From Candidatus Kaiserbacteria bacterium (GTDB lineage: Bacteria > Patescibacteriota > Minisyncoccia > Phycocordibacterales > UBA2100): 64,000 nt of DNA. The stretch is taken from NCBI GenBank assembly GCA_963767115.1, contig CAVYCR010000005.1, positions 25,582 to 89,581 of the forward strand. Reading direction: 5' to 3'. Below are positions 51,356-58,662 of this stretch, piece after piece. The notes under the pieces were generated by a model that saw only the letters and a program-made list of their open reading frames with translations, was not told the origin of the DNA and searched no databases. A program made the translations under genes and the position numbers. The stretch's first letter is position 1; each line of letters begins with the position of its first letter.

Positions 51356-53050
51356 ATGAACAGAGCAGTATTTTACGCCCGAGTAAGCTCGGATTTGCAG
51401 CACAAAGAACGTTCGATCGAGAGCCAGATCGCAGAGCTGAAGAGGCAGATCGAGAAGTCCGGCAGCAAACTGGTCAAAGAGTACGTCGATAACGGGTACA
51501 GCGGAGCATTGCTCGACAGGCCAGCGATGGACCAACTGCGAAAGGATCTGCGGACGAATGTCTTCGACACGATCTACATCTTGAATACTGACCGCATCGC
51601 GCGCGACGTGACGCATCAGAACATCATCGTCGGCGAGATGCTGCGATACAAGAAACAGATCATCATTAACGGCAAAGATTACATTCATAATCCTGAGAAT
51701 AAATTCACGCTTACAGTACTCGGTGCGGTGTCAGAGCTGGAGCGAGCAAAACTGATCGAGCGTACGACGCGTGGCAGACAGCATCGCTTACGACAAGGAA
51801 TATTGCTCGGCAATGGACATCAGCTGTACGGGTACACATACAGCAAGAAGACTCCTACTTCATGGCCTTCGTATGCGATCAATGAGAAAGAGGCCAAGGT
51901 CGTACGATACATTTTCAATACATATGCCGAGGGCGGCGTCGGTATACATACCATCGCAACACAACTTGATCGTATGGGCGTGGAGAAAAGGCGCGGGAGA
52001 AACTGTCTCGAATATTCAGGGGTCGAAGGTATTTTAAATAACGAGACATATACGGGCTTCCGGTACTTCAATACCATGAAGCAAACGCGGGTGCCTTCAG
52101 ATCCAATGTCCAAGGCGAAGCAGGGCAAAATGGAACGTACGCCACGGTCAGAATGGATTGGTATTCCCGTACCCGCGATCATTTCCAAGAAGATATTTGA
52201 AAAGGTCAGAAAACGCCTTGAACACAACCACGCGTGCTGGCGCAATTCAAGACAGCCACAATTACTTTCCAACTTAGTCTGGTGCGGCATGTGCGAGACA
52301 CGCTGCTACGCACTACGACGCTCGTATCAGATAGAGCGAAGCAACGGGACATATAGGTATCGGCGGATCGTATACGTATGCAGATCGAAAAGCGCATCCG
52401 GTCACATTCCTGAGATCGCTGGTCATGCACTAGAAACACTGACCTTCGACATGATACGAGAGACGATGCTGGTGCCGGAAAGACTACATGAGTGCATTGA
52501 CCTATTGCATAAGCGAGCTAATGCGGGAAAACTGGAACAGCAATTACTGCATTTGGAAGAAAGAATACGAGTAATCGCCCAGCAGAAAAAGCGCATTATC
52601 GATCTGTATGCTTCTGGTGATCTCGAACACGAGGAATATATAAAGCGTATCCGCATCTACGATACCGAAACGACGGCCTTGAAGGAAAAACGCGATGGCC
52701 CTGCCAAATATGCTCCCCTGCTACAAAAGCCGGAGCTGATCGAAGCTGGGATCTCAAAGTACTGCCAGATTGTGCAGACGCGATTCAAGCAATGCGCCGA
52801 TTTTGAGACGAAGCGGAAGTTCTTGCAGGAGTATGTGAGCAAGGTTACGTATCATCGAAAGAACAAGGCTACAACAAAGGTGAAGGTATGTGGATCGATT
52901 CCGATACAGATAGGACCGGAAACGGTCGGCGTGGAGTTCACCATCGAACACAACATGGACTGGCACGAAATGATGGCGAGGTCGCCGAAGCAGTCAGAAC
53001 CATCAGTCGGGTATGACTACGTGCATCCATTCTCAAAAATAACGGTATGA
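51356..53050 (+). CDS. large serine recombinase 1
   Basis: Resolvase catalytic N-terminus (AVFYARVSSDLQ...SIESQ), a recombinase domain, a Cys-rich zinc ribbon (CGMCETRCY...YVCRSK) and a coiled coil. An AAGGGG SD precedes the ATG at 51356. Confidence 0.9.
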   Translation: MNRAVFYARVSSDLQHKERSIESQIAELKRQIEKSGSKLVKEYVDNGYSGALLDRPAMDQLRKDLRTNVFDTIYILNTDRIARDVTHQNIIVGEMLRYKKQIIINGKDYIHNPENKFTLTVLGAVSELERAKLIERTTRGRQHRLRQGILLGNGHQLYGYTYSKKTPTSWPSYAINEKEAKVVRYIFNTYAEGGVGIHTIATQLDRMGVEKRRGRNCLEYSGVEGILNNETYTGFRYFNTMKQTRVPSDPMSKAKQGKMERTPRSEWIGIPVPAIISKKIFEKVRKRLEHNHACWRNSRQPQLLSNLVWCGMCETRCYALRRSYQIERSNGTYRYRRIVYVCRSKSASGHIPEIAGHALETLTFDMIRETMLVPERLHECIDLLHKRANAGKLEQQLLHLEERIRVIAQQKKRIIDLYASGDLEHEEYIKRIRIYDTETTALKEKRDGPAKYAPLLQKPELIEAGISKYCQIVQTRFKQCADFETKRKFLQEYVSKVTYHRKNKATTKVKVCGSIPIQIGPETVGVEFTIEHNMDWHEMMARSPKQSEPSVGYDYVHPFSKITV

Positions 53051-54718
53051 AGAAGGCAGTTATCTACGCGAGAGTCAGTACCGATATCCAGCAGAAGGAA
53101 GGCACGATTGAAAGCCAAGTAATTGAACTCAAGCGGCAAGTAGTTGCCGCTGGTGATGTCCTTGTAAAGGAATATATAGACAACGGGTATAGCGGGGCGA
53201 AGTTGGATCGTCCCGCACTCGACCAGATGCGGAAGGATCTTGGCTCGGGGCTTTTCGATACGATCTACTTCCTTAACACAGATCGTATCGCGCGAGATGT
53301 GACCTTTCAAAATATCATCGTCACGGAAATCCTGAGGCACAAGAAACAGATCATCATTAACGGGAAAGATTATATTCATAACCCTGAGAATAAGTTCGAG
53401 CTGACCGTACTGGGTGCAGTTGCAGAACTGGAACGCGCGAAGATGATCGAGCGCAGTTTGCGGGGAAAACAGCATCGGCTCAAACAAGGATTCCTTCTAG
53501 GTCATGGCTACAACATTTACGGATATGACTATTCAAAGCGCGCTTCCGACATCCCTGCGAAGCTGACCGTCAACGAGAAGGAGGCAAAGATCGTACGGTA
53601 CATTTTTGAGAACTTCGCTAAGGGCGAAGCCAGCGTATGGCAGATGACGCGACACCTTGAGAAAAGCGGTATACCTACCAAAACTGGCAAAAAGCTTTGG
53701 AATATCGATGGACTCAAGCGTATGCTCAGAAATCCTACGTATGCGGGTACGAGGTATTTCAATACGAGACGGCTCACGAAGGAGCATGCCAGCCCATTAC
53801 GCGGACTCGAGTACGGCAAGAAGGTATGGAGGCCGCGTTCAGAATGGGTCGGTGTAAAAGTGCCTGCCATCATATCTCAAAAACTCTTCAATCAGGTGCA
53901 AGCAAAAACTGAATACAACAAGATCCACTACTACCATCCCAAAACCAAGCAGCTCCTTTGTAATCTCGTTGAGTGCGGCGAATGCAATTCAAGCTACTAC
54001 GCCTATCAGCGGTACTACCGAGAGAAACGACGCGGTCCGATGCGAGTGCGCCACAAGATCGCGTACTCTTGCAACAAACGGGCCGTAGACAAAATGCATC
54101 ACAAGGATCTGGTAAAGCCATGCCGGAACCCTGAGATCAAAGCTGAGATGTTGGAAACGTGCGTTTTCCGCATGATCGAAAATGTCATGCTCAATCCCGA
54201 AACTCTACGAGCGCACATGGATTTCTTCAATAAGAAACAACGTGCCGATCAATTGAGGCTTGAGGGTCAGCTGAAGAAAATTGATGAGAAGATCCACGCA
54301 ATCGGTGAACAGAAAAAGCGCATGGTCGATGAGTATGCGTCGGGTGATATTTCCCAAGAGGACTATATCGAGAGGAACATCACACATGATCGGACGATAA
54401 ACAAGCTTGGGACGAAAAAGAAAAGATTTAGTCAGTCGCATTCCCCTACTGCATAAAGCAGAGATCGTTGATCTGAACCTACGCCGATATTGCGAAGCAA
54501 TTAAAGCTCGATACGAGCAGTGCGTGGATTTTGATACTAAGCGCAAGTTCCTACTGGACTACATCGGCCAGGTTATATTCGTAAGAGATGCCGTTACTGT
54601 ATACGGATCCGTGCCTATAAGACTAAAGGCGTATGAAGACCCAGAGCAGACGAGTGAAGCGGGTAAATTACAATTCCGAATCGAGGGAAAGATTGATAGG
54701 AGCAAGAAATTAATCTAG
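53047..54718 (+). CDS. large serine recombinase 2 (paralog), one frameshift in an A-run at 54415-54424
   Basis: Its start overlaps the recombinase 1 stop (ATGA). It has AVIYARVSTDIQ and CGECNSSYY...YSCNKR. The C-terminus continues in ORF 54407..54718 (KDLVSRIPLLHKAEIVD...DFDTKRKFL), parallel to the recombinase 1 C-terminus. Confidence 0.85.
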
Positions 54719-54760
54719 TTCGCACATTGTTTGCGTCTTTGTAGTGGGTGTCTAGGTGGC

Positions 54761-55057
54761 TTATAGAGCTTCCTTGTTTTTGCTCATTTTTCTCCTCCTA
54801 TACAAAAGAAAAAGAAGTAGGAGGCCCGCAACAGCGATAAATAGAGTCCCATACCGTATGACCTCATCAGATACTAACCTGATTTGTAGAGGGAAATTAT
54901 ATTGATGAACAAAAAAATCAAAGATGTTTATTAAAAAACCTCCGAGAAAAAGAATCCACCCCCATAAGAAAACACGGATATGCTCACGCCTCCAAATATA
55001 AAATAGGAATATCGCGCAGAGAAGAAATATAATGCTAAAAAATAAATCGGGTATCAT
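54761..55057 (-). CDS. small 3-TM membrane protein (candidate immunity protein for the RHS tip)
   Basis: 98 aa, starting 27 nt downstream of the RHS-CT stop, in AT-rich DNA. Confidence 0.55.
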   Translation of the reverse strand: MIPDLFFSIIFLLCAIFLFYIWRREHIRVFLWGWILFLGGFLINIFDFFVHQYNFPLQIRLVSDEVIRYGTLFIAVAGLLLLFLLYRRRKMSKNKEAL

Positions 55058-55084
55058 AAAGATTTTGATTTTATAATAAATCTA

Positions 55085-55993
55085 TCACGGCCCTTCACTT
55101 GGCGATTGATCATCATAGGGGCCTATCTGCCCAAAGAAAGATCTGTATAGATTTTCAATAACGGCTGCAGCTACACCTGTACCTATAACAGCACTGCCTG
55201 CAGTCGTCAAACGCGACCACGGTATACTATCCAATCCGCCAGATGAAGATTCTGCGGTTTCTGCAGCCTCTCTCAATGCTTGAGATTCTGCCAGTGTAGT
55301 GTCTTCTCCGATTCCTTCGGTTAACGATCCATACTGCCCAATTGTTGTGATAGCCCTTGCAGCACCTTTTGTGGCAATTTGCGCAAGGTAATTTGCGACA
55401 TCACAATCTATTGCACAGTCTAAAGCGACTGACCCAAGAGCAGCATCCCCGACCATTCCGATGCCTGTGCCTGCCCCCAGTATTCCGATAGTGGCCGCCG
55501 CACCCGCCGGAGTATTTCCTCCTCCCTGCGTTACAATACCGTTATTCCTGCTCTGGTTGTAATTATAGGACGTCCATGACGTATTAAAAAGATTCGAAGG
55601 ACTTGGATGGGAGCCGCTATTGGACTGAGCGGCCGATGGGTTCTGCAGGTACTGGTATGTGCTAAAGGTGCTACAGCAGACGCTTTCATTGGTGCCGTTG
55701 TAATCGTATACAAGTCCTTGGCCTGGAATAATCGCACTTGTAAGACCGGTCGGATCTTCTTTAATTATTGGATTGTCTTGTGAGTAGGAGTAGGCGTTAA
55801 GACTTTGTGGATCTGTTAGAATTTGTAGCTTTGGAATGCCTAGAAATAGAGGATCTTCAGATAAGAACTGGCCTTGGGAACTATTGTAATAACGCTTCTG
55901 AAGGTAGTTTAAAGAGCTTCCGGCATCATAGTACTGACCGATAAAAGTCATTGCCGAGAAACACGATGAAGAAGTCGTCGAGCGGACAACCAT
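55085..55993 (-). pseudogene. orphan RHS repeat-associated core plus C-terminal toxin tip (5'-truncated)
   Basis: FIGQYYDAGSSLNYLQKRYYNSSQGQFLSEDP...NAYSYSQDNPIIKEDPTGL is an RHS core ending in DPxGL. All upstream YD repeats are absent. The CT of about 215 aa has Gly-zipper-like stretches (GAAATIGILGAGTGIGMVG; GSAVIGTGVAAAVI). Confidence 0.7.
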
Positions 55994-56489
55994 TTACGAT
56001 TCCCAACAGAAGGCCCTGAGTGACACGCAGAAACAGCTCGATAATCTTACTCAGATGCGCCTACGCGAAATGATCGACGATGATGAGTATTTGCGCGAGA
56101 AGACTCGGCTCAAGAATGAAATGGCCGTAATGAAGACAAAGGTGCAAGGTACAGAGCAACGGGCCGAGAATTGGCTCAAGCTTACCGAACAGACTTTCGA
56201 CTTTGCCTGCTACGCGCACAAAGCGTTCCTTTTTGGCGACGCGCAAACGAAGCGAGAGATACTTTCAACCATCGTTGGTTTGAACTGCACAATGCGCGAT
56301 CACGTTCTTAACATTCAAGCCGTGGAATGGCTTGTACCGATCAAAGATAAGTATCCTGCCCTCGAAGCTAGGATAAAGGCGTTTGAACCAGAGAATTATG
56401 GCTCTCCGGAATGGGAAAAGGCGGCTTTCGCCGCCTTCAGTCCCGATGTGCGCGGCCGACCGGACTTGAACCGGCAACCTCTCGCGTGA
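55945..56489 (+). pseudogene. 3' remnant of a third large serine recombinase, running into tRNA-Asp
   Basis: The frame reads ...EEVVERTTIYDSQQKALSDTQKQLDNLTQMRLREMIDDDEYLREKTRLKNEM...FLFGDAQTKREILSTIVGLNCTMRDHVL, which is the coiled-coil and C-terminal region only. No catalytic domain is present. Confidence 0.6.
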
Positions 56490-56524
56490 CAGGCGAGTGC
56501 TCTAACCAGTTGAGCTACGGCCGC
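56451..56524 (-). tRNA. tRNA-Asp (anticodon GUC)
   Basis: Hand-folded: GCGGCCG acceptor, anticodon arm CTCGC-CTGTCAC-GCGAG, T arm GCCGG-TTCAAGT-CCGGT, discriminator G, no encoded CCA. Confidence 0.85.
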
Positions 56525-56606: not shown

Positions 56607-57476
56607 TCACGAATGCGTAGCACGGCTGGAGAGGAGCTGTGCAAGTACGATGGTGAGCGCCTTGATCTGCGACTCAAGCTGCGCTATCTCGGCTGACTGG
56701 TCGCTGGTAAGCGCAGTTGAGGTTGCCATGGTCGAAGAAGCGGCGCCCGTATACGAAAGTAGCGCTGCGCGCGTCGGCGCATCAAGGAGGCCGTAGCCGG
56801 TCGTGTATTCGTCTCCCGAGCAGGTGATGCCCTCTCTGCATTGGAACTGGCGAAGCGCAGCTTGTGTGAGAAGCCCGAAGACGTCTGTCTCCTGCCCGAG
56901 CGAACCGGGGCCGGAAGTAGCGACGGTGAAACCGTCGGCGTTCAGCATCTCCTGAAGCGTTACGACCTGCGGATCGACGTTGCCGAGTATGAGGTTGATC
57001 GAAAGCGCGGGAGAAGATGTCGCTGCTGCACCCATGGAACTAGTGGCAGACGAAGTTGCCATAACAGTCGCCGAGGACGTACCAACAACGAGCGGATGCC
57101 AACACGAGTATGACGAGAACCACGGCGTCGTCCCTTCGAAGCCGTAGAGGAACCGCGCGTACTCGAGATTACCGGTCGTCGTGTCGATATCGATACCTAA
57201 GCTTTGCGCCGCACCCGCATGAGAGCCTTCGTCGAGCTGAAATACCCCGACCACGTCGCCGTCGCCGCCGATAAGCGGAGCGCCGTTTGCCGCATATTGT
57301 CGGAAGCTCGATTCGCACTGCGCGATCGCGATCATGACGGGGATGTCTGAGAAGTAGGATCGTACCTGCGCTTCGACGCCGGCGTTGGGGTCGGTTGTTG
57401 TCTGTGCGGATGCAAATGCTGGGGCAAATACAAACAGCACCGACAAGAACCCTAGATATGCTTTCTTCATCTTCAT
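56607..57476 (-). CDS. secreted peptidoglycan-binding / lytic-transglycosylase-like protein
   Basis: Signal peptide (start probably MKMKKAYLG), a muramidase-like AIAQCESSFRQY block and a PG_binding_1-like repeat (VVTLQEMLNADGF...FGLLTQAALRQFQ). Confidence 0.7.
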   Translation of the reverse strand: MKMKKAYLGFLSVLFVFAPAFASAQTTTDPNAGVEAQVRSYFSDIPVMIAIAQCESSFRQYAANGAPLIGGDGDVVGVFQLDEGSHAGAAQSLGIDIDTTTGNLEYARFLYGFEGTTPWFSSYSCWHPLVVGTSSATVMATSSATSSMGAAATSSPALSINLILGNVDPQVVTLQEMLNADGFTVATSGPGSLGQETDVFGLLTQAALRQFQCREGITCSGDEYTTGYGLLDAPTRAALLSYTGAASSTMATSTALTSDQSAEIAQLESQIKALTIVLAQLLSSRATHS

Positions 57477-57521
57477 AGAAAGTAAGTATAGCAAAAACGA
57501 GTAATTTTGGTGGTCACAAAT

Positions 57522-57585
57522 AATTCCTTTGCCGTCGCAAAGGAATTTTCGCGACCCCGGCGCGCCGTCGCTTCTACTGAAGCGA
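57522..57585. repeat. 64-nt two-hairpin module, copy 1 (3' of tRNA-Val)
   Basis: AATTCCTTTGC-CGTC-GCAAAGGAATT, then TTCGCGACCCCGGCGCGCCG, then TCGCTTC-TACT-GAAGCGA. Confidence 0.8.
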
Positions 57586-57612
57586 CATGACTTGCGCCTC
57601 GCACATGCACAT

Positions 57613-57638
57613 GAAAAAGCAAAGCAGTTTGCTTTTTC
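57613..57638 (-). terminator. 11-bp hairpin just 3' of tRNA-Val
   Basis: GAAAAAGCAAA-GCAG-TTTGCTTTTTC, 8 nt after the tRNA 3' end. Confidence 0.5.
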
Positions 57639-57646
57639 AAGTTATG

Positions 57647-57719
57647 TGCGCGATGCAGGACTCGAACCTGCGACCTTCCCGGTGTAAACGGGTTGCTCTA
57701 CCAACTGAGCTAATCGCGC
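57647..57719 (-). tRNA. tRNA-Val (anticodon UAC)
   Basis: Hand-folded: GCGCGAT acceptor, anticodon loop TTTACAC, T arm GCAGG-TTCGAGT-CCTGC. Confidence 0.85.
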
Positions 57720-57756
57720 ATTATAGAAACGGTGCCGGCGGGGCTTGGTCACCGAT

Positions 57757-57820
57757 ATTTTCATTGCCGCCGCAATGAAAATTCGTCGACCCCGGCTCGC
57801 CGCCCGTTCTGCTGAACGGG
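57757..57820. repeat. 64-nt two-hairpin module, copy 2 (3' of tRNA-Met)
   Basis: ATTTTCATTGC-CGCC-GCAATGAAAAT, then TCGTCGACCCCGGCTCGCCG, then CCCGTTC-TGCT-GAACGGG. The geometry is the same as copy 1, with 6 compensated stem differences. Confidence 0.8.
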
Positions 57821-57836
57821 ACCCCAGCTCCGCCCT

Positions 57837-57868
57837 GCAAGTCCTTCCGGCGGCAAGAAATACAAGTC
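57837..57868 (+). repeat. inverted copy of the tRNA-Met 3' end plus trailer
   Basis: GCAAGTCCTTCCGGCGGCA-AGAAATACA on the plus strand matches minus-strand GCAAGTCCTTCCGCCGGCAcTAGAAATACA (57890-57922). Confidence 0.75.
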
Positions 57869-57903
57869 GTATAATGCGATGCATCATACTCCTGTATTTC
57901 TAG

Positions 57904-57977
57904 TGCCGGCGGAAGGACTTGCACCTTCGACCTTGGGTTTATGAGTCCCATGCTCTAACTACCTGAGCTACGCCGGC
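57904..57977 (-). tRNA. atypical tRNA with anticodon CAU (elongator Met or Ile2)
   Basis: The cloverleaf folds, with G1-C72 paired. However, the T-loop reads TGCAAGT (G at position 55 instead of U) and 31:39 is A.A. Confidence 0.65.
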
Positions 57978-58003
57978 AAAGTATATTCTTACGCTTCTCA
58001 AAC

Positions 58004-58264
58004 ATGCAACAGCCTGATAATAGCCTATTTTATGGCTTTTTCGATACTGGACATGAGAAATATATATTATATAATACATATATGAAAGTAGTTTTGCTCA
58101 TCAACAGCATCCTCTGGTGCTTTCTCTTCACCTATTTTTTCTATTGCTTCGGCGTTGCCGTCTTGGCGCTGAGCGTCGCTGGCCTCGGCAAGCTTCTGGC
58201 CGCCGCCCTTTTGCTCGCCATCGCTACGATGAGCCAGATGGTCTTCGGGATAGCCGCGCACTAA
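58004..58264 (+). CDS. possible small membrane protein
   Basis: 86-aa ORF (a shorter start MKVVLLINS is possible) with two hydrophobic helices. Support is weak. Confidence 0.3.
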   Translation: MQQPDNSLFYGFFDTGHEKYILYNTYMKVVLLINSILWCFLFTYFFYCFGVAVLALSVAGLGKLLAAALLLAIATMSQMVFGIAAH

Positions 58265-58662
58265 GCAAGTGACGCGCGCACCGCATCAAAAAATGCGCGG
58301 TCTTTCTCGTCGGTGAGCGTGCCTGTCACCTGCTCGAGTGCTACCCATTGCGCCGCAGGATTAATAGGATCGATCGGTGCGAGCTTCTCTTCTACGCTCG
58401 TGAAGAGATACATATGGATCAGCTTATACTCTTGCATATGCGCTCCGCCGCGCCGCTCATAAGAGCCGAGATCACGTATGAAGGTGATTTCATATAAGCC
58501 GGTCTCTTCGGCGATCTCGCGCCGTGCCGCTTCAAGCAGTGTCTCGTCACCTTCGACATGGCCTTTGGGGAAACCCCAGAAGCCCGCGAAGTGACTCTGG
58601 ACGAGCGCCACCTCGCCGCGCGCATTCATGACGATACCGCCGGCGATGATCGATGGTTGCAT
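58261..58662 (-). CDS. NUDIX hydrolase
   Basis: The start is trimmed to MQPSIIAGG so it does not overlap the tRNA. Nudix box GHVEGDETLLEAARREIAEETG. Confidence 0.8.
   Translation of the reverse strand: MQPSIIAGGIVMNARGEVALVQSHFAGFWGFPKGHVEGDETLLEAARREIAEETGLYEITFIRDLGSYERRGGAHMQEYKLIHMYLFTSVEEKLAPIDPINPAAQWVALEQVTGTLTDEKDRAFFDAVRASLA

Follow-up and report, generated by a model that had tools for sequence, protein, structure and literature searches.

What are the two small hairpin modules that stand 3' of a tRNA-Met and a tRNA-Val gene in the genome of a Candidatus Kaiserbacteria bacterium, and what keeps their structure alike while their sequences diverge? A sequence-only reading of the window, by which we mean the whole 64,000-nucleotide stretch of DNA analysed, had described a two-hairpin unit of 64 nt present twice with identical geometry, six compensatory stem changes and a conserved box upstream. 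Both modules were confirmed by sequence check at the positions given in Table 1, with three differences per stem, each of the six matched by a change on the opposite arm, and with TGGTCAC as the upstream box at 57511-57517 and 57746-57752. In a repeat search of the window the pair appears as a 71-nt direct repeat, 76% identical and 235 nt apart. Placed earlier some 60-150 nt downstream of tRNA-Val and tRNA-Met, the modules begin at 61 and 83 nt, respectively, on the minus strand. We read them as the cores of two copies of a structured noncoding RNA element that lies within a tRNA transcription unit in tRNA sense, copy 2 between tRNA-Met and tRNA-Val and copy 1 after tRNA-Val, with the promoter candidate upstream of tRNA-Met as the possible start of that unit.

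Table 1. Features of the tRNA-Met, copy 2, tRNA-Val and copy 1 unit, with coordinates in the window.
Feature	Position	Strand	Sequence or remark
Sigma-70-like promoter candidate	58017..58044	-	TCGAAA-16-TATTAT upstream of tRNA-Met; 9/12 consensus match only
tRNA-Met, anticodon CAU	57903..57977	-	63.9 bits against RF00005; unusual T-loop UGCAAGU
tRNA-Met trailer hairpin	57856..57902	-	Lies at the apex of a palindrome that is near-perfect and about 94 nt long
a' of copy 2	57836..57855	-	UGCCGCCGGAAGGACUUGCA; antisense to tRNA-Met from T-loop to 3' end, one mismatch
P2 of copy 2	57794..57834	-	GGC-GGA-GCU ... CCCGUUC-AGCA-GAACGGG ... GGC-GA-GCC; includes 7-bp hairpin 57803-57820
P3 of copy 2	57747..57791	-	GGUCGACGAAUUUUCAUUGC-GGCG-GCAAUGAAAAUAUCGGUGACC; includes 11-bp hairpin 57757-57782
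Copy 2, 11-bp hairpin	57757-57782		Plus-strand letters ATTTTCATTGC-CGCC-GCAATGAAAAT; sequence check
Copy 2 linker			Plus-strand letters TCGTCGACCCCGGCTCGCCG; then CCCGTTC-TGCT-GAACGGG at 57803-57820
a'' of copy 2	57732..57747	-	CAAGCCCCGCCGGCAC; degenerate direct copy of tRNA-Met 3' end CAAGUCCUUCCGCCGGCAC, from T-loop
tRNA-Val, anticodon UAC	57646..57719	-	70.8 bits; 12 nt downstream of copy 2 a''
Copy 1 trailer hairpin	57613..57638	-	GAAAAAGCAAA-CUGC-UUUGCUUUUUC
a' of copy 1	57599..57606	-	AUGUGCGA; trailer-type junction
P2 of copy 1	57559..57598	-	GGC-GCAA-GUC ... UCGCUUC-AGUA-GAAGCGA ... GGC-GC-GCC
P3 of copy 1	57512..57556	-	GGUCGCGAAAAUUCCUUUGC-GACG-GCAAAGGAAUUAUUUGUGACC, then ACCA
Copy 1, 11-bp hairpin	57522-57547		Plus-strand letters AATTCCTTTGC-CGTC-GCAAAGGAATT; sequence check
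Copy 1 linker			Plus-strand letters TTCGCGACCCCGGCGCGCCG; then TCGCTTC-TACT-GAAGCGA at 57568-57585

The hairpins of the 64-nt unit are real, but the true unit is larger, with a core of about 88 nt; likewise, the 20-nt linker lies where it had been placed, but part of it is paired. On the minus strand, which is that of the tRNAs, the 11-bp hairpin forms the upper part of a stem of some 20 bp with a GGUC/GACC closure, whose G.U pairs are present on the minus strand only. The 7-bp hairpin is the top of a second stem, which extends through GCY/GGC and GGC/GCC helices. The core of the element, about 85-88 nt, comprises two long hairpins, P2 (irregular) and P3, with a joint of 2 nt between them. P2 carries a conserved GGA/GA internal loop, which in copy 1 has partly turned into Watson-Crick pairs, and the base of P3, GGUCGNG/YGUGACC followed by A and C, looks like an acceptor stem with its discriminator. 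On the minus strand, both copies fold much more stably than their shuffles (z = -10.0 and -3.5). The sequence-only reading had placed the modules correctly relative to the tRNA strand, but had missed both the folding strand and the full extent of the element. It had also suggested a scan by covariance model, and such a model built from 67 relatives and zero window sequences (R2) recovers exactly the two window copies, both on the minus strand: copy 1 at 57610-57502 (86.5 bits, E about 8e-18) and copy 2 at 57846-57737 (78.3 bits, E 5e-16), with the next best site in the window at E 0.56. Downstream of the other five tRNAs of the window, neither reading nor the covariance model revealed further copies.

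Beyond the window, pattern scans found more than 60 distinct relatives in genomes of Elusimicrobia, Saccharibacteria and Paceibacterota and in metagenomes, and compensation of stem differences holds among them. In an alignment of 62 sequences (A3), the paired fraction of pair cells is 96%, compared with 76% for shuffles and 31-45% for slid controls, and double-sided changes occupy 339 cells, against 99 in shuffles. A smaller, model-retrieved set that includes divergent copies (A4) has 23 of 26 pairs covarying, among them those of the P2a helices and the P3 base; both the P2a and P2b helices covary across the family. On the tRNA-sense strand about 52 cells are G.U or U.G and about 5 are A.C or C.A (a manual sum over pairs not fixed by the search pattern), and this large excess of G.U over A.C points to RNA, or to that single DNA strand, as the folding molecule. 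Selection acts on the structure as formed by the tRNA-sense strand; the earlier argument for selection on a folded single strand, and against a recent duplication, is borne out by the covariation across the 62 relatives and by this G.U excess. We conclude that the modules belong to an unannotated, strongly covarying family of structured elements downstream of tRNA genes in Patescibacteria and Elusimicrobia.

The link to tRNA 3' flanks generalises across this family, although the sense and antisense copies of tRNA ends in the flanks, and the likeness to RtT discussed below, had escaped the sequence-only reading. For 52 unique copies, all within 92 nt of it, a same-strand tRNA ends 36-92 nt upstream (median 49 nt), and these tRNAs represent at least 15 amino-acid specificities. 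The 5' flank of the element, a', runs antisense to the 3'-terminal stretch of the adjacent tRNA, and the 3' flank, a'', often repeats that stretch. The direct repeat runs from T-loop nucleotide 56/57 to the tRNA 3' end or a few nucleotides beyond, and spans everything from perfect (26 nt in L193; 25-nt examples in L239 and L248) to decayed copies. For 42-46% of copies, the score against their own tRNA is higher than the 95th percentile of the control with mismatched tRNAs. At T-loop-type junctions a' reaches T54, while in the trailer-type copies examined it extends 5 nt into the tRNA; in both types a single purine separates a' from the core. An attempt to read T5' plus the T-loop as a sense tRNA copy was abandoned, as GGAUUUGAA, the reading in the Elusimicrobia copies, is UUCAAAUCC reverse-complemented and not its sense form.

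Both junction types occur in the window. The a' of copy 2 has an antisense score of 17.5, against 9 at the 95th percentile of the mismatched-tRNA control, and to judge from its letters it can pair either backwards with the tRNA or forwards with a''. Positions 57732-57741 in the a'' of copy 2 are identical to 57903-57912 in the tRNA-Met end, and a metagenome relative (L259) has the same derived form of a''. The a' of copy 1 is a weak match (score 7; compare the related copy L253): its first seven bases, AUGUGCG, are complementary to 5 nt at the 3' end of tRNA-Val and 2 nt of its trailer, and there is no recognisable a''. Between tRNA and element stands a terminator-like hairpin, often with a U-tract; the CUGC loop of that of copy 1 is common to many family members.

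Our preferred reading, to which we give about an even chance, is that the element is an RNA cotranscribed with tRNAs and released through mimicry of a tRNA end. Read-through from the tRNA promoter would make the element, with some copies having their own promoter, and the a':a'' helix together with a single-stranded, tRNA-like 3' tail would imitate an acceptor/T-stem end. A stable RNA of about 90-170 nt would be excised by the machinery of tRNA end maturation, namely RNase P, RNase Z or exonucleases, and the CCA-adding enzyme; a protein-binding surface on this RNA is suggested by its conserved GA-rich internal loop and by the junction. The repeated tRNA ends and the trailer hairpins may serve as sites of unequal crossing-over and so alter copy number. 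Such a released RNA is favoured by the tRNA-end mimicry, by long persistence and by the own promoter of L229, where TCGAAA-17-TGcTATAAT lies 5 nt before hairpin plus core and there is no tRNA upstream. Against it count the weak a' and absent a'' of copy 1 in the window. The terminator-like hairpin between tRNA and element also implies that read-through may be low. Older copies (L167, L218, L232 and L255) have a decayed a'' but an a' that is still perfectly complementary to the real tRNA, which would not be expected if the a':a'' closing helix were the selected feature.

A further observation that points against a released RNA, and looks like mobility, is that near-identical cores occur beside different tRNAs with unrelated flanks (L142, L157, L152 and L210). 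Cores about 96% identical adjoin tRNA-Arg(tct), tRNA-Ala(cgc), tRNA-Arg(gcg) and tRNA-Ala(ggc), with sharp boundaries to their flanks. It is conceivable, if on balance unlikely, that the element is a miniature nonautonomous mobile element that inserts at tRNA genes, with the core as the moving unit and a'' and a' as by-products or guides of insertion, a'' being an att-type duplication of the kind left by T-loop integration. In a variant, the fold would be that of single-stranded DNA, in which the stem of a' plus a rebuilds the tRNA-gene duplex, as in integron attC and CTX-phi; what is selected would then be the structure of an intermediate, either RNA or single-stranded DNA. The graded decay of the direct repeats fits such insertion, as does L135, where the distal copy carries CCA and the tRNA itself is followed by UAC. 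So do the seven copies, with tandem arrays, in one 8-kb Saccharibacteria locus and a core that is nearly identical between two distant phyla. Element-free tRNAs are without a palindromic trailer, and a palindrome native to the tRNA genes was rejected on this ground. No element is present at the corresponding tRNA-Met/tRNA-Asp cluster of Kaiserbacteria relatives (72-74% GatA identity), but these are too distant to define an empty site and their tRNA-Met differs. An exact search with the GatA of the window gave no entry; a cluster representative identical to it lies on a single 6.5-kb contig, which stops short of the tRNAs.

The insert is flanked by a direct repeat of the tRNA 3' part, as are integrative elements at tRNA genes, but a unit of about 150 bp is far below the size of classical integrative elements and encodes no integrase; the serine recombinase of the window (53047-54456) is some 3 kb off, beyond tRNA-Asp. 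Across 15 loci, no recombinase, transposase or reverse transcriptase is consistently nearby, and the element has neither constant terminal inverted repeats nor a target duplication of fixed length. Where different species carry a copy at the same tRNA, the differences between these copies are compensated (L128/L137/L151; L175/L231; copy 1 of the window and L253), and these many substitutions, as we read them, show long vertical persistence, which speaks against a mobile unit. Nor were true copies found in viral contigs, phage records or plasmid records: among the matches listed from a loose viral pattern scan there were GC-rich chance sequences and none with the fold; of three matches in a specific viral scan, two lie in coding-like, GC-rich sequence and the third (L181) has no recognisable P3 or GUGACC; and blastn against phage and plasmid records returned nothing. 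A related proposal, which we regard as improbable, is a guide-bearing mobile unit, in which the 85-88-nt core would spread to further tRNA loci and acquire or use a segment antisense to the 3' end of its target tRNA. Equally improbable in our judgement is its mechanistic part, that the inverted and direct target copies reflect target-complementary insertion, possibly RNA- or single-strand-mediated, by an element that encodes no protein.

The complementarity of a' to the real tRNA is the best-kept feature of the flanks (21/21 in L167, 16/16 in L232 and 12/12 in L255). That it outlasts a'' in these copies would be expected of a cis-acting module of the tRNA precursor, a reading that we consider doubtful. 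Here, a' would pair with the tRNA 3' end and trailer, giving a long duplex capped by the trailer hairpin; the core would be an adjacent protein-binding or folding module, and the whole would direct or gate 3'-end processing, termination or the disposal of read-through, for example through RNase III cleavage of the duplex. The reach of a' in each junction type and the single purine before the core agree with this. At tRNA-Met, the left arm of the palindrome is the last 20 nt of the tRNA, and the duplex (57832-57940) folds at -61.3 kcal/mol with z -9.7; among tRNA-Ala loci (L146, L187 and L225), the trailer and its complement covary. However, a T-loop-type duplex would unfold the T-arm and acceptor stem, destroying rather than maturing the tRNA, most tRNAs in element-bearing genomes have no element, and some copies, such as L229, are without an upstream tRNA. 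In addition, a neutral process could keep a' matched to a selected tRNA arm, template-switch correction of imperfect inverted repeats being one such route.

The tRNA-derived flanks could also be taken as the mark of a tRNA gene that has degenerated into a pseudogene, or of a local duplication, without any function of its own, and the plus strand at 57734-57855 does start like the 5' end of tRNA-Met and end like its 3' half. Reading a' and a'' on the opposite strand fully accounts for this likeness, no tRNA model matches the core, and the family shows strong covariation and conservation across phyla; we hold this reading to be highly improbable and already largely refuted. A plus-strand tRNA at 57734-57855 was likewise rejected: a'' and a' lie there in reverse, the T-stem is unpaired, and ARAGORN and Rfam call nothing. 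On the tRNA model itself (RF00005), both programs call only the flanking tRNA-Met and tRNA-Val, neither of which overlaps a core.

The earlier remark that the motif was not recognised stands. At gathering thresholds, Rfam 15 families match only tRNAs in the whole window, and relaxed searches (E up to 10 for 57300-58100, E up to 0.1 for nine family loci) add only chance, sub-threshold matches of microRNA type; a literature search, which included the conserved core sequence, found no description of the element. Several identities were considered and set aside. P2 and P3 draw no call as intrinsic terminators and P3 is followed by ACCAAAAUU or AAGCCCC, not a U-tract, whereas in some family members the trailer hairpin, which is separate from P2 and P3, does have the form of an intrinsic terminator. 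A MITE or REP-type repeat is contradicted by flanks that vary with the adjacent tRNA and by the lack of a constant terminal repeat; the window holds only two copies, both at tRNAs, in contrast to dispersed MITE or REP sequences. By inspection, HDV-like, hammerhead, twister, pistol and hatchet ribozymes and group II domain V do not fit in topology or conserved nucleotides, and none has an Rfam match. Retron msr/msd, IS110 bridge RNA, TnpB or IscB guide RNA and IS200/IS605 ends were set aside because none of their partner genes lies in the vicinity.

To our knowledge, very few noncoding RNAs have been described in Patescibacteria (the candidate phyla radiation) and Elusimicrobia. The family adds a widespread, multicopy RNA, and models R1 and R2 are ready for RNA family libraries and annotation pipelines. 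If the element should prove mobile, tRNA genes would be the target of a very small unit whose flanks derive from that target, and its mechanism of insertion could be new. Either way, duplications of tRNA 3' ends in these genomes should not automatically be taken as scars of prophages or genomic islands.

Known systems share individual traits with the element. In T-loop-class att duplications the 3' part of a tRNA is repeated from the T-loop and the distal copy decays with age, and the direct repeat of the element likewise runs from the T-loop to, or just past, the tRNA end; however, the element is an insert of about 150 nt with no integrase, and has an antisense copy of the target and a covarying folded core. 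Integron attC and CTX-phi attP are recombination sites that work as folded single strands, and resemble the element in keeping structure while sequence varies, in a strand-specific fold, in tandem arrays and in a stem that rebuilds a duplex target. Unlike attC, the element shows no R''/R' boxes (RYYYAAC / GTTRRRY) by eye, has no integron integrase nearby and is associated with tRNA genes, not attI. Group IIC introns insert directly after the 3' foot of a terminator-like hairpin, where the element is also placed, but its 88-nt core is without domain V/VI, a reverse transcriptase ORF or an Rfam group II match. Small RNAs such as 3'ETS-leuZ of E. coli are cut from the spacers of polycistronic tRNA transcripts by the tRNA-processing machinery; these are short, mostly unstructured, single-locus sponges that act by base pairing and, unlike the element, have no conserved multihelix core, tRNA-end copy or multicopy family.

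By analogy, the closest counterpart is RtT (RF00391). The two agree in architecture, but model searches give no homology: RF00391 matches neither the window, even with E relaxed to 10 for 57300-58100, nor the nine family loci searched (E up to 0.1), while the tyrT region, as positive control, gives four matches of 133-138 bits, and model R1 finds no match in the tyrT region. In E. coli, four copies of RtT lie between and after tyrT and tyrV, and the consensus has a closing stem, GGGGAAGGAU/AUCCUUCCCC, followed by CACCACCA, a copy of tRNA-Tyr from the T-loop; the annotated sRNA rttR ends at the copied CCA. RtT and the element are alike in lying between or after tRNA genes on the same strand in repeated copies, in a branched interior of two hairpins, and in a closing stem made of a tRNA 3'-end copy from the T-loop and its complement. 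Such a closing stem is found in copy 2 of the window and about half of the family (the T-loop type), and is weak in copy 1 (the trailer type). RtT is confined to one tRNA (Tyr) in enterobacteria and is without a palindromic trailer hairpin, whereas in Patescibacteria and Elusimicrobia the element is found with tRNAs of at least 15 specificities. In the older literature, the RtT of the tyrT operon is described as excised in the form of a stable RNA by tRNA end-maturing enzymes, a precedent for the proposed maturation of the element. As far as we know, the function of RtT itself has been unclear for decades. The family may offer a second, much larger and more diverse case of the RtT design, making possible comparative tests of which parts are conserved, which enzymes cut, and what binds the GA-rich loop.

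Two copies of the element lie on the minus (tRNA) strand of the window, copy 2 between tRNA-Met and tRNA-Val and copy 1 after tRNA-Val. Direct reading of 57000-58400 confirmed what the sequence-only reading had described at 57522-57585 and 57757-57820: the same geometry in both copies (hairpins of 11 bp and 7 bp, each with a 4-nt loop, on either side of a 20-nt "linker"), three between-copy differences per stem with 6/6 compensated and, in plus-strand reading, a TGGTCAC box 5' of both. The pair forms a 71-nt direct repeat (76% identical) in a repeat search of the window, and because both tRNA genes lie on the minus strand at the positions tabulated below, the modules start 61 and 83 nt downstream of tRNA-Val and tRNA-Met, in agreement with the downstream placement proposed earlier. 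The hairpins are real, but the actual unit is larger than the 64 nt first described, an 88-nt core composed of hairpin P2 (holding the 7-bp hairpin), a 2-nt joint and hairpin P3 (holding the 11-bp hairpin). On the minus strand the 11-bp hairpin runs on into a stem of ~20 bp (GGUCGCGAAAAUUCC...GGAAUUAUUUGUGACC) whose G.U pairs would become A.C mismatches if the plus strand folded, and below the 7-bp hairpin lie two 3-bp helices, GCY/GGC and GGC/GCC, parted by a conserved GGA/GA internal loop, so that the 20-nt linker is partly paired.

Features of the window and of the corresponding tRNA-Met to tRNA-Asp stretch in Kaiserbacteria relatives (L265, L266, L268)
Feature	Sequence	Position	Strand	Detail
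Large serine recombinase	window	53047-54456	+	Resolvase, Recombinase and Zn-ribbon domains; in region 53047-56524
ORF near recombinase	window	55085-55993	-	no Pfam match
ORF near recombinase	window	56055-56489	+	no Pfam match; overlaps tRNA-Asp
tRNA-Asp	window	56450-56524	-	overlapped by ORF 56055-56489
Copy 1 core	window	57511-57598	-	P2, joint, P3
tRNA-Val	window	57646-57719	-	ARAGORN and Rfam
Copy 2 core	window	57746-57835	-	P2, joint, P3
tRNA-Met	window	57903-57977	-	ARAGORN and Rfam
Corresponding stretch	window			copy 2, tRNA-Val, copy 1, peptidoglycan-binding protein gene
tRNA-Met to tRNA-Asp stretch	L265	12708-12904		47 nt
tRNA-Met to tRNA-Asp stretch	L266	20449-20931		small ORF
tRNA-Met to tRNA-Asp stretch	L268	12529-13439		free-standing LAGLIDADG homing-endonuclease ORF (PF14528, E 2e-13), missing from called gene list

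Positions common to the two window copies served as the query pattern for a scan of one genome per bacterial and archaeal species, where 58 places matched; 15 had the fold (Elusimicrobia 7; Saccharibacteria 6, three of them on one 754-kb contig; Paceibacterota 1; unclassified bacterium 1) and the remainder were GC-rich chance matches. A stricter pattern matched 82 places in metagenome contigs, those rejected being mostly exact duplicates or one GC-rich coding sequence recurring in many contigs, and 60 distinct cores from both sources were accepted as true. Viral contigs gave no clear member among the matches listed in the pattern scans, and phage and plasmid records gave none in blastn searches. 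The element is absent from Rfam 15, where the window and nine good family loci match no family except tRNAs, consistent with the motif having gone unrecognized at first, and we found no description of it in the literature. A divergent core sub-family occurs at L243 3496-3601 (-), L142 3067-3174 and 6438-6541 (+), and in the downstream flank of L146 (L-numbers denote loci from other genomes or metagenomes), with covaried P2a helices, GCC-GSA-GCG ... CGC-GA-GGC; the 3' end of the L243 copy, CGGGAGCAC, is identical to the acceptor 3' strand of the neighbouring tRNA-Arg, and its P3 base is itself made of tRNA-Arg acceptor sequence.

The core structure is under selection on the tRNA strand, as RNA or single-stranded DNA. 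In an alignment of 62 distinct cores (A3), 96.0% of pair cells held standard pairs compared to 76.3% in column shuffles (0/500 shuffles reached the observed value) and 31-45% when partners were slid by 1-3 columns, with double-sided changes in 339 cells vs 99 in shuffles and a covariation score of 0.527 vs 0.160. In some A3 columns the invariance reflects nothing but the search pattern; to escape this, a covariance model (R1) was built and used to gather divergent copies (A4, 33 sequences), in which 23/26 pairs covaried, including both P2a helices (GC to CG) and the P3 base (UA to CG), although A4 leans towards the model structure because it was fitted to it. One variant, L185, carries a perfect helix GGAAUGUCG/CGACAUUCC in place of GGCGGAGCC/GGCGAGCC. 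A hand tally of the A3 pairs left free by the pattern, read on the tRNA-sense strand, gave ~52 G.U or U.G cells and ~5 A.C or C.A cells, which identifies the tRNA strand as the one that folds, whether as RNA or as single-stranded DNA. Selection on a folded single strand, originally argued from two copies, is upheld by the A3 covariation and this G.U excess, and the suggested search for further copies, run with patterns and with R1, yielded relatives in genomes and metagenomes whose stem differences are compensated. A second model (R2), built from 67 relatives with no window sequence included, recovered only the two copies in the window (E 8e-18 and 5e-16, both minus strand; next best E 0.56).

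In 52 unique copies, a same-strand tRNA ends 36-92 nt (median 49) before the core, with Val, Arg, Ala, Lys, Gln, Met, Trp, Ile, Gly, Glu, Leu, Ser, Asp, Thr and His all represented; copies without a tRNA call are mostly contig-end cuts, later units of a tandem array or follow a tRNA fragment missed by ARAGORN. Seven copies lie within one 8-kb Saccharibacteria locus (L142), where tRNA-Arg(gcg) is followed by three, tRNA-Arg(tct) by two and tRNA-Val by one; the seventh is divergent. At L142 2958-3440, after tRNA-Arg(gcg), a two-unit block of ~264 nt is tandemly duplicated in the order hairpin, a' (the 5' flank of the core), core alpha, then hairpin, a', core beta; the second-unit a' matches a tRNA-Arg-like end and not the preceding core, indicating that whole blocks were moved or duplicated. 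The tRNA-Met upstream of copy 2 has an unusual T-loop, UGCAAGU, with G in place of the near-universal U55, and related tRNA-Met genes in L259, L208 and L216 (T-loops UGCAAGU, UGCAAUU) also carry such an element downstream.

Both flanks of the core copy the tRNA end: a', directly 5' of the core with one purine between, is antisense to the upstream tRNA 3' end, and a'', the 3' flank, is often a sense copy of that end. Two junction types are about equally common, a T-loop type that includes copy 2 and a trailer type that includes copy 1. In the T-loop type, a' reverse-complements the tRNA, beginning at T54 and covering the T-stem 3' strand and often also the acceptor 3' strand, and is sometimes interrupted by a conserved hairpin GAGC...GCG (loop CUGC or AUAAUUAU); a'', after GUGAC-C, runs from T-loop nucleotide 56/57 to the tRNA 3' end, including gene-encoded CCA where present and at times trailer and terminator too, with perfect direct repeats of 25-26 nt (L193, L239, L248) or ~40 nt (L198, L208). 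In the trailer type, the antisense match of a' covers the trailer and the final 5 nt of the tRNA; tRNA end, trailer, terminator-like hairpin and a' form one long ~25-bp hairpin (e.g., L146, -57 kcal/mol), and the core 3' end GUGACC-A-C then AAA repeats the tRNA's own ...CCAC/AAA. When every flank was scored against tRNAs of other loci, the own-tRNA score exceeded the 95th percentile of these mismatched pairs for the antisense segment in 46% of copies and for the direct repeat in 42%, and the palindromic trailer was absent from element-free tRNAs in the same loci. In copy 2, a' (57836-57855) matches tRNA-Met across 20 nt with one mismatch and folds with the trailer hairpin at -61.3 kcal/mol (z -9.7), and a'' (57732-57747) is a degenerate copy, CAAGCCCCGCCGGCAC; copy 1 has an a' of 7 nt and no clear a''. 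Directly after copy 2 a'', a perfect TATAAT (57720-57731, -) stands 2 nt ahead of the first base of tRNA-Val, too near for the normal -10 box of a tRNA with a leader.

Preservation of a'' varies from perfect to decayed, and a' remains perfectly complementary to the real tRNA despite a decayed a'' (L167 21/21, L232 16/16, L255 12/12). The better conservation of a' fits a cis-acting module that would gate processing or termination through pairing of a' with the tRNA 3' end, a reading we find unlikely. Against it, such pairing would unfold the tRNA at T-loop-type junctions, and imperfect inverted repeats can undergo neutral correction, which could keep a' matched. Between species, copies located at a given tRNA are separated by compensated changes and have thus persisted for long (L128, L137 and L151 at tRNA-Val(cac); L175 and L231 at tRNA-Gln; copy 1 and L253 at identical tRNA-Val(tac); copy 2 and L259 at the unusual tRNA-Met), and in two related pairs (L137 and L151; copy 2 and L259) the tRNA and the acceptor part of a'' show parallel changes. 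Near-identical cores (three differences in 82 nt) also occur beside different tRNAs, sharply bounded by flanks that are unrelated (L142, L157, L152, L210), and the core therefore moves or is copied between loci. The main rival explanation, a miniature mobile element targeted to tRNA genes, accounts for target-derived flanks, spread among tRNAs, arrays and occurrence in two phyla, but lacks any enzyme and must also explain the long vertical persistence; we regard it as a serious though rather unlikely candidate. At an Elusimicrobia locus (L135 5479-5696, -), CCA comes after the distal copy of the tRNA-Val 3' end and UAC after the tRNA gene itself, as would be expected if an insertion brought in the proximal 3' end. 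A tRNA pseudogene or functionless duplication is not supported and seems highly improbable.

By GatA (72-74% identical), the organism of the window stands close to Kaiserbacteria in the Paceibacterota. Three such relatives carry an element-free tRNA-Met/tRNA-Asp cluster and are too distant to define an empty site; in Kaiserbacteria relatives the stretch between these tRNAs is a variable spot. In the window, 53047-56524 resembles an integrated or variable region of its own at tRNA-Asp, apart from the element.

Position, orientation, a strand-specific structure under selection and tRNA-copying flanks all belong to what we observed. The best-supported explanation, to which we give an even chance, is an RNA made in the tRNA transcription unit and cut out by the enzymes that mature tRNA ends. 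Such an RNA would arise as part of that unit through read-through of the trailer hairpin, and would be excised by virtue of a closing helix and 3' tail that resemble the end of a tRNA; once released, it may act in trans. In one case, a stand-alone copy with no tRNA upstream (L229 3977-4158; identical sequence in L240), the element has a strong sigma-70-like promoter of its own (TCGAAA-17-TGcTATAAT) 5 nt ahead of a palindromic hairpin whose left arm begins CCACAUAAA, as a tRNA end and trailer would.

The closest known system is in the E. coli tyrT-tyrV operon, where a single RtT unit (RF00391) separates the two tRNAs and three more follow them, four in all. In the Rfam consensus, GGGGAAGGAU pairs with AUCCUUCCCC in the closing stem, followed by CACCACCA, a copy of tRNA-Tyr from T-loop to CCA, and the interior is branched with two hairpins; the annotated sRNA rttR starts 7 nt past tyrV and has its end at the CCA of that copy. 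Since an RtT unit is closed by a copy of the tRNA-Tyr 3' end and has a two-hairpin interior, it shares its architecture with the T-loop type of the element; the sequences are unrelated in model searches in both directions. Processing of the tyrT transcript has been described as the step that releases RtT. We group the element with RtT, among tRNA-operon RNAs that would imitate a tRNA end. The element represents a large, cleanly covarying RNA family with unusual target-derived flanks in poorly known phyla, and provides a testable link to RtT, an old unsolved RNA of E. coli.
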